DNA of 64,000 nt from a virus (IMGVR_UViG_3300013947_000022:64001-128000); one strand, 5' to 3'; shown: positions 47,751-48,042, numbered from the stretch's first letter. The notes: generated by a model not told the origin, from the letters alone. Numbers and translations: made by a program.

Positions 47751-48042
47751 CGAGGAGTAGCGCAATTATTAGAGCGGCGGTCTCTGGAATTTTGGACTCT
47801 GTATTGGAAACTTTACAGTGAAACGTGTCAAAATCGGTGGAACTCTTAGTCCCTTAAATTAAGACAATACCGAGCCAAGCCTTGAAAGACAGGAAGGTGT
47901 AGAGAGCAGATGGCACGAGCCTAAACGATTTTTTCGCATGGTTGTGGTGTGCTCCAATCTACAAGATTTTTTAAATCTGTTATAGCAATATAACGTGTAG
48001 AAAGAAAACCGCAGGTTACGGGTGAGAGTCCCGTCTCCTCTG
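47751..48042 (+). tRNA. Amber-suppressor tRNA (CTA), split by a group I intron
   Basis: Exons 47751-47785 and 48005-48042 join to GCGGT-CTCTAAA-ACCGC; acceptor CGAGGAG/CTCCTCT, G73, T stem ACGGG/CCCGT. Confidence 0.85.
47786..48004 (+). mobile_element. Group I intron (219 nt) in the suppressor tRNA anticodon
   Basis: Exon ends in U, intron ends in G; IGS TTTGGA pairs with exon TCT (P1) and 3' exon AAA (P10); core motifs AAATCGGTGGAA, AATACCGAGCC, P7 GAGCA/TGCTC. Confidence 0.85.

Follow-up and report, generated by a model that had tools for sequence, protein, structure and literature searches.

From its sequence, the locus described here is quite probably a phage amber-suppressor tRNA gene, split between U35 and A36 of the anticodon by an IC3-like group I intron of 219 nt that carries no ORF, and its spliced product would read UAG as glutamine. 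The tRNA occupies two exons, 73 nt in all, at 47751-48042 on the plus strand of the window, the whole 64,000-nucleotide stretch that was analysed, which spans positions 64001-128000 in a phage contig of 215,374 bp (hereafter G000). The intron is most likely an optional selfish element that has invaded a conserved target, rather than a regulator. Borges et al. (bioRxiv 10.1101/2021.08.26.457843) reported a matching suppressor tRNA in only ~40% of TAG-recoded genomes. In the present genome a 'missing' suppressor is apparently there yet invisible to ARAGORN and the Rfam tRNA model, its gene being split by a group I intron and its elbow loops being degenerate.

The split tRNA gene

The acceptor stem (CGAGGAG/CTCCTCT) combines a C1.U72 mismatch with G2-C71, and G73 lies at 48042. 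U8 and A9 separate its 5' strand from the D arm, which has the stem GCGC/GAGC and the loop AATTATTA without GG. The anticodon stem is GCGGT/ACCGC, with loop nucleotides CTCT contributed by the 5' exon. The variable loop has 5 nt, the T stem ACGGG/CCCGT closes the T loop TGAGAGT (G55 A56), and the 3' exon ends without an encoded CCA. Both unusual loops had been pointed out in a first-pass annotation made from the sequence alone, and our reading of them is the same. When the exons are joined in silico, ARAGORN calls tRNA(cta) and the cloverleaf is the minimum-energy fold.

The spliced molecule has what is expected of an elongator tRNA, namely a cloverleaf, a 7-nt anticodon loop with U33 and a purine at 37, and stems kept by compensatory change. 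Its elbow is not canonical: G18 G19 are absent from the D loop and T54 psi55 C56 from the T loop. The loss of G18 G19 and psi55 C56 is specific to G000 and its relative G001, whereas GG and TTCGA are retained in the relatives G002, L089 and L096. G19-C56 may have given way to a U19-A56 pair. In bacterial initiator tRNA, a mismatch at 1-72 weakens EF-Tu binding, and the mismatch, like the altered elbow, counts against the proposed function. A promoter scan near the split gene found sites no more numerous than in shuffles.

A group I intron within the anticodon

Rfam Intron_gpI (RF00028) matches 47775-47975 with 34.8 bits (E 5e-6 in a 9.5-kb search, 2.8e-8 genome-wide). Group I models had been proposed as a check in the first-pass annotation, and their match is significant while remaining under the gathering cut-off of 50 bits. 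Helices P1 to P9 were placed from the Rfam alignment and the sequence (Table 1), and covariation was evaluated in an alignment of four homologous split genes, those of the window, G002/L086, L089 and L096.

P1 comprises 3 bp, U33-C34-U35 with G47794-G47795-A47796, with the U35.G47794 wobble at the splice site. P1, wobble included, is invariant in the four homologues, and G48004 is conserved in all homologues. P10 joins U47791-47793 to A48005-48007 and has only 2 bp in the G002 type; the shortness of both helices speaks against the proposed splicing. A 47817 A>G variant in run X5 retains its P2 pair as U.G. Three pairs of P3 are changed on both sides among the four homologues, P4 and P6 are invariant, and P7, 5 bp long and crossing P3 as a pseudoknot, has one compensatory pair. 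All three pairs of inner P8 are compensatory. The P8 internal loop CCUAAA...CAUGG would resemble a GAAA-tetraloop receptor, by analogy with CCUAAG...UAUGG in tRNA-Leu introns. P9 is represented in the relatives by equivalent helices of different sequence, and G48004 is found three bases past it.

Over the whole four-homologue alignment 89.6% of cells pair, against 38-45% with the partners slid, and 17 pairs change on both sides; none of 500 shuffles reaches the observed values. The helices of the core from P3 to P8, the P3/P7 pseudoknot and P9 could all be placed. When the intron is folded by itself, the minimum-energy structure (z = -2.1) contains P2, P4-P5 and both inner hairpins of P9 and lacks the pseudoknot. 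The intron has no ORF, and no regulatory add-on or extra domain.

Table 1. Features of the split suppressor locus and two TAG-containing ORFs, in window coordinates.
Feature	Position	Strand	Evidence
ORF with NADAR domain; domain match spans the in-frame TAG at 23687	23375..23899	+	ORF and domain search
GIY-YIG homing-endonuclease ORF with 5 in-frame TAG and no other stop	24995..26008	+	ORF and domain search
tRNA(CUA) 5' exon: acceptor 5' strand, D arm, anticodon stem 5' strand, C32 U33 C34 U35	47751..47785	+	Sequence read; intronless G001 gene matches exactly to 47785
Group I intron, 219 nt, no ORF, starting after U35, omega-G at 48004	47786..48004	+	Rfam RF00028; absence from G001 with precise boundaries; ARAGORN on G002; covariation
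Internal guide sequence: UUUU (P10 partner of AAAA in the 3' exon), then GGA (P1 partner of U33 C34 U35)	47790..47796	+	Register of the Rfam alignment
P2 hairpin with GAAA tetraloop	47799..47818	+	Fold and four-homologue covariation
P3 (47824-30/47911-17, 7 bp) enclosing P4 (47834-39/47868-73), P5 (47844-48/47860-64), P6 (47874-76/47896-98) and the P7 5' strand (47904-08)	47824..47917	+	Rfam alignment
P8 (47919-21/47940-42, 47926-28/47934-36), then the P7 3' strand (47950-54)	47919..47954	+	Four-homologue alignment
P9 three-way domain: outer stem 47958-63/47996-48001, hairpin 47964-78, hairpin 47979-94 (GCAA tetraloop)	47958..48001	+	Fold and covariation
tRNA(CUA) 3' exon: A36 A37 A38, anticodon stem 3' strand, variable loop, T arm, acceptor 3' strand, G73	48005..48042	+	Sequence read; ARAGORN on spliced sequence; comparison with G001
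Terminator-like element: 10-bp hairpin (48052-61 with 48068-77), then T-rich run	48052..48083	+	Sequence read; overlapping weaker form flagged by tool

Splice junction and intronless relatives

Relatives were found in IMG/VR through a search with the DnaE-type polymerase. One of them, G001 (218.8 kb), has a polymerase that is 95% identical and contains the same tRNA gene in one piece: BLAST pieces that end at window 47785 and resume at 48005 are adjoining there, and the resulting junction CTCT|AAAA gives the loop CUCUAAA with the anticodon CUA. The G001 gene reads ...GCGGTCTCT AAAACCGC..., which is one D-loop change from the window gene, and it has the same odd D and T loops. A T-stem pair that is C-G in G000 is U-A in G001, a compensatory change. 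On the G002 homologue, ARAGORN in intron mode calls a tRNA(cta) with a 219-nt intron and the junction 'tctct-Intron-aaaac'. The identity of the G001 allele across the junction, together with the tRNA(cta) call on the spliced sequence, is what precise excision predicts.

That a 219-nt group I intron sits within the anticodon as CU|A, originally proposed from the sequence, is thus borne out by the Rfam match, the helix covariation and the intronless allele. The product loop CTCTAAA, held to be fixed by P1 and P10, agrees with both the G001 allele and the ARAGORN junction on G002. ARAGORN in intron mode, recommended then as a check, succeeded on the homologue and left the window locus uncalled.

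A different tRNA(CUA), L062 (G003:C1:67242-67331), occupies the position syntenic with window 47751-48042 in the 94%-related genome G003, and the terminator-like flank is kept downstream of the CUA tRNA in both G001 and G003. L062 is intronless and has a variable arm of ~20 nt, U1.U72, G73 and D and T loops of canonical form; its long-arm body with G73 suggests Ser-type identity. G003 has most TAG positions in common with G000, and no TAG-to-Ser-codon exchange is found among the commonest partners.

Detection and distribution

The expectation that standard scans may miss the gene proved right, in that neither ARAGORN (default or intron mode) nor the Rfam tRNA model called it on genomic DNA. 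Nine further contigs have the same split CUA gene (G002/L086, L089, L096, L227-L231), of which five large ones (L227-L231) came from a metagenome scan. ARAGORN in intron mode mislabels seven of the nine (L089, L096, L227-L231) as tRNA-His(atg) with a 198-201-nt intron. An exact search of viral contigs with the 29-nt 3' exon gave 0 matches. The intron allele itself is nearly unchanged in contigs of four DNA runs from two studies (compared over window 47300-48500); these contigs contain no joints and so bear neither on splicing nor on intronless variants. Among the sequencing runs listed for the locus there is none of RNA.

The anticodon arm GGTCTCTAAAAYC is found together with a GGTTCGA T arm in at least 118 viral contigs, L109-L188 among those listed, and about half of the tRNAs with the GGTCTCTAAAAYC arm have a long variable arm. 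Several distinct families of putative CUA suppressors have this arm in common.

TAG recoding and client genes

When TAG is read through, the share of the genome covered by ORFs rises from 0.79 to 0.87, with most of the gain at 10-60 kb and 200-215 kb. The window is the replication module; of its 70 ORFs that reach 100 aa, only one terminates at TAG. Late ORFs with in-frame TAG lie at genome 33869-41992 (2707 aa, 7 TAG), 43367-48364 (a tape-measure protein of 1665 aa, 10 TAG) and 50623-53721 (1032 aa, 6 TAG). Scans of the 215-kb genome with ARAGORN, Rfam and a stem-loop search found no other CUA tRNA. The genome combines a CUA anticodon with in-frame TAG in conserved genes, the pattern by which code 15 is recognized. 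That the split tRNA would supply the TAG readthrough, as had been inferred initially, is supported by the late ORFs with their 6-10 in-frame TAGs and by the failure of these scans to find another CUA tRNA.

Few genes are as rich in TAG as the homing-endonuclease ORFs (GIY-YIG, HNH and others), which have 4-9 in-frame TAG each (window 24995-26008; genome 12243-13256, 19700-20713, 22028-23143 and 48416-49219). Since they are TAG-rich even in the otherwise TAG-free replication module, their expression would depend on the split suppressor.

Some other features of the window were recorded. The DnaE/YorL-type DNA polymerase is encoded in two ORFs (3322-6222 and 6515-9109) that abut at PHROG profile positions 444/445 and leave a gap of 292 nt, in which no Rfam group I match was found. 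A T4-type RNA ligase ORF lies at 14096-15502, and a weak match to YrlA (Y RNA-like) at 44090-44161 (28 bits, E 0.01, cut-off 69).

Predicted maturation and its possible role as a timer

The following course is drawn from the anatomy of the locus and the known behaviour of tRNA group I introns. The precursor would be transcribed as the last gene of a tRNA cluster, ahead of the terminator-like hairpin. With the anticodon stem formed, U33-C34-U35 would pair with the guide GGA as P1, and U35.G47794 would mark the 5' splice site. Exogenous guanosine would attack there, P10 (UUU/AAA) would align the 3' exon, and exchange of omega-G48004 would yield a 73-nt tRNA with the loop CUCUAAA. Host enzymes would then trim the ends and add CCA, and a host synthetase would load the spliced tRNA, so that UAG would be read as glutamine. 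Such suppression would permit translation of the TAG-containing structural and homing-endonuclease genes, and in this lineage every TAG-containing gene would depend for its expression on RNA catalysis through the predicted splicing.

The alternative that survives best concerns the role of the intron. In the first-pass annotation it was suggested that splicing could time the code switch: slow or conditional self-splicing would delay the suppressor and with it the TAG-containing late, lysis and homing-endonuclease genes. The suppressor does lie in the standard-code module, and ~2.8 kb downstream of it comes an ORF (50857-51831) whose product has a peptidoglycan-binding domain at its C terminus and matches endolysin families weakly. 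TAG gates the late and the selfish genes, the intron allele is stable from one sample to the next and turns up again in at least nine contigs, and a ribozyme role in the maturation of tRNA-Sup has been proposed for theta ribozymes (PMC10879173). G001, however, has the same gene without the intron and G004 has an intronless CUA tRNA of the same type, and both keep in-frame TAGs that align with those of G000. These two genomes leave the timer unsupported and make the intron look like an optional selfish element. The bare structure of the intron, devoid of ORF and regulatory add-on, also speaks against a gate. Seven other group I matches in the genome (11889-12195, 13421-13773, 14276-14632, 43148-43285, 60067-60412, 185229-185490 and 185735-185978), four of them above the Rfam cut-off, fit a general invasion by introns. 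Group I introns of tRNA genes are moreover fast, constitutive self-splicers.

We therefore consider splicing-gated recoding unlikely, and equally doubtful that splicing is a selected checkpoint at which virion, lysis and homing-endonuclease proteins are released only once the ribozyme folds and finds guanosine and Mg. If it were true, intron-split suppressors would be a recurrent ribozyme-based timer and would explain part of the 'missing suppressors' in recoded phages. G000 with the intron and G001 without it form a natural pair for the effect of splicing on the timing of the code switch.

Amino acid inserted at TAG

At well-aligned TAG sites of G000, the codons of G001 are TAG (36), CAA (14), CAG (6), AAG (3), GAA (2), TGG (2) and TTG (1). 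The reverse comparison, from TAG in G001, gives CAA 13 and CAG 6, and G003 is similar. CAA is the commonest partner of TAG though two mutations away from it, which only Gln synonymy explains. At some TAG positions the aligned codon is one for Lys, Glu or Trp, which counts against a Gln reading. Taken together, the codon exchanges support the reading of TAG as Gln in this phage.

No match to a GlnRS/GluRS, release factor, GatB or CCA-adding enzyme gene was found in the genome (PF00749, PF00472, PF02934, PF01743). With no synthetase, GatB or CCA-adding gene in the phage, charging and end maturation would fall to the host; a host without GlnRS would charge the suppressor by the GluRS/GatCAB route. 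U35, G73 and G2-C71 are read by E. coli GlnRS, which also opens the 1-72 pair. Of the E. coli GlnRS set, the split tRNA has U35, G73, the 1-72 mismatch, G2-C71 and G10, and differs at 3-70, which is A-U instead of G3-C70. By this analogy, its acceptor end (1-72 mismatch, G73, G2-C71) would be of the kind favoured by GlnRS. The split family and the intronless genes of G001, G003 and G004 all have an unpaired 1-72 (C.U, U.C, U.U or C.A), G73 and G2-C71, whereas A1-U72 prevails among phage tRNA-Trp genes. Statistics on the acceptor ends of other phage CUA tRNAs were discarded, the ends being too varied and the boundaries given by ARAGORN too inconsistent.

The anticodon arm was compared with phage tRNAs in the fetched loci. 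Its differences from tRNA-Trp(CCA) average 3.25 in 14 positions, with a minimum of 0 (one arm is identical outside the anticodon), and those from tRNA-Gln(UUG) average 7.05; over the whole sequence, identity is 62% with Trp and 49% with Gln. The split tRNA thus looks derived from tRNA-Trp by a change of C35 to U. The Trp-like arm and the Gln-like determinants (G73, G2-C71 and the C1-U72 mismatch) reported in the first-pass annotation are both present, and the codon exchanges side with the latter.

Being a tRNA-Trp derivative with G73, the suppressor could insert Trp, or a mixture of Gln and Trp. Its arm and body are nearest to phage tRNA-Trp(CCA), a few TAG-to-TGG exchanges are seen, and 19% of phage tRNA-Sup examples are called Trp-type by an isotype model (PMC10879173). 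Yet at the 28 TAG sites that differ in G001 the codon is CAA or CAG in 20 and TGG in two, and the two-step exchange with CAA is left without explanation if the residue is Trp. TGG codons, conserved at 441 of 450 positions relative to G001, almost never become TAG. Trp decoding of TAG was rejected on these exchange tables, and we regard insertion of Trp, alone or mixed, as very unlikely.

Further alternatives

A smaller chance still is given to the view that the gene is disabled, whether by the intron or by its degenerate D and T loops, and that TAG is read by a host-encoded or undetected suppressor. The non-canonical loops, the C1.U72 mismatch, the missing CCA, the sub-threshold Rfam score of the intron and the lack of a tRNA model match would all suit a decayed gene. 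Compensatory changes in the tRNA stems and intron helices, on the other hand, imply selection on both structures; the odd loops are common to G001, where the gene is uninterrupted; and the genome, in which no alternative CUA tRNA was found, retains many conserved in-frame TAGs.

Least credible of all is a non-CUA product arising from another P1 register (U33.G47794) or another 3' G, for although 4 bp of G30-U31-C32-U33 with GGAC (47794-47797) are possible and conserved in every homologue, this register would unwind the anticodon stem and leave a loop of 5 or 9 nt, and the intronless alleles carry CTCT|AAAA as both the ancestral and the product sequence. A 3' splice at G48000 was considered and rejected, since G48000 is within the P9 stem and G48004 follows it, with which the intronless allele agrees. 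In Anabaena, the tRNA-Leu intron has a 3-bp P1 and depends on the anticodon stem; as in that intron, P1 in the favoured register is made of loop nucleotides only and the anticodon stem is retained.

Kinship of the intron

A 20-nt core of P4-P6 was considered as a marker of a tRNA-resident subfamily and rejected, since 29 other introns in viral contigs contain it too, and these lie outside tRNA genes, apparently within protein-coding ones. The P6-P7-P3 motif GAAGGTGTAGAGAGYAGAYGG (21 nt, consensus GAAGGUGUAGAGAGYAGAYGG) is more restricted: outside this phage group it is found in seven tRNA-Leu(taa) genes and one tRNA-Arg(tct) gene, all eight with anticodon-loop introns of 194-226 nt, and in contig L108, where no tRNA was called. 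Only the tRNA-Leu/Arg introns align over most of the window intron, with 74% identity over 129 nt and 68.5% over 168 nt. Target sites are alike as well: CUU|AAAA in tRNA-Leu, CUUCU|AA in tRNA-Arg and CUCU|AAA in the split suppressor. The motif, together with a near full-length alignment restricted to tRNA introns, places the intron in the classical tRNA-resident family, which we describe as IC3-like.

Classical anticodon-loop group I introns in sense tRNAs were also observed in low-GC viral contigs of 9 to 127 kb, namely L102 and L104 (tRNA-Leu taa) and L106 (tRNA-Arg tct), so that in phages tRNA-resident group I introns are not confined to the suppressor. In the window itself, tRNA-Pro UGG (41615-41733) and tRNA-Glu UUC (46780-46974) have anticodon-loop inserts of 49 and 125 nt, respectively, and a stunted tRNA-like match lies at 43886-43947. 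These two inserts are too small for group I introns.

Comparison with known systems

IC3 introns of the anticodon loop occur in tRNA-Leu(UAA) of cyanobacteria and chloroplasts, in Azoarcus tRNA-Ile(CAU) and in Agrobacterium tRNA-Arg(CCU). Like these, the present intron is small (~200-250 nt), lacks an ORF and lies in the anticodon loop after U and before an A-rich 3' exon, and it has a 3-bp P1 of loop nucleotides only, a P2 GAAA loop and the receptor-like motif in P8. It differs in that its host gene is a phage stop-codon suppressor where theirs are cellular sense tRNAs, in that it is inserted at 35/36 and not at 34/35 as in tRNA-Leu or after 36 as in tRNA-Arg, and in its Rfam score under the gathering cut-off.

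For charging, the closest precedent is E. coli su7 (supU), a tRNA-Trp whose CCA is changed to CUA and which is charged mainly with Gln. The two have in common the Trp-type anticodon arm and body, U35, G73 and the reading of TAG as Gln. Unlike su7, the split tRNA is natural, phage-encoded and interrupted by an intron, and it has a conserved pyrimidine mismatch at 1-72.

The suppressor tRNA genes found in code-15 gut phages were contiguous (Borges et al. 10.1101/2021.08.26.457843; Yutin et al. PMC7886860; Devoto et al. PMC6784885). Those phages resemble the present one in having a tRNA(CUA) in a standard-code module, TAG as Gln in structural and homing-endonuclease genes and no phage synthetase, whereas the window gene is split by a putative ribozyme and has degenerate D and T loops. 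Other recoded phages should yield suppressors once they are searched for CUA tRNAs split by introns, with better code assignment and gene calling as a result.

Theta (HDV-like) ribozymes adjoin phage tRNA-Sup genes (Kienbeck et al. 2024, PMC10879173), and 'enigmatic' tRNA-shaped introns in phage tRNAs are described in the literature; none of the literature that we searched places a group I intron in a suppressor tRNA of a phage. In both the theta system and the present one, a self-processing RNA would be coupled to the maturation of an amber-suppressor tRNA in code-15 phages. The theta ribozyme lies beside the tRNA and cleaves; the group I intron lies within the anticodon and must both cut and ligate. 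The split gene joins two known kinds, the tRNA-resident group I introns and the phage amber suppressors, and would extend the intron family of tRNA-Leu/Arg/Ile to phages and to a tRNA that reads a stop codon.
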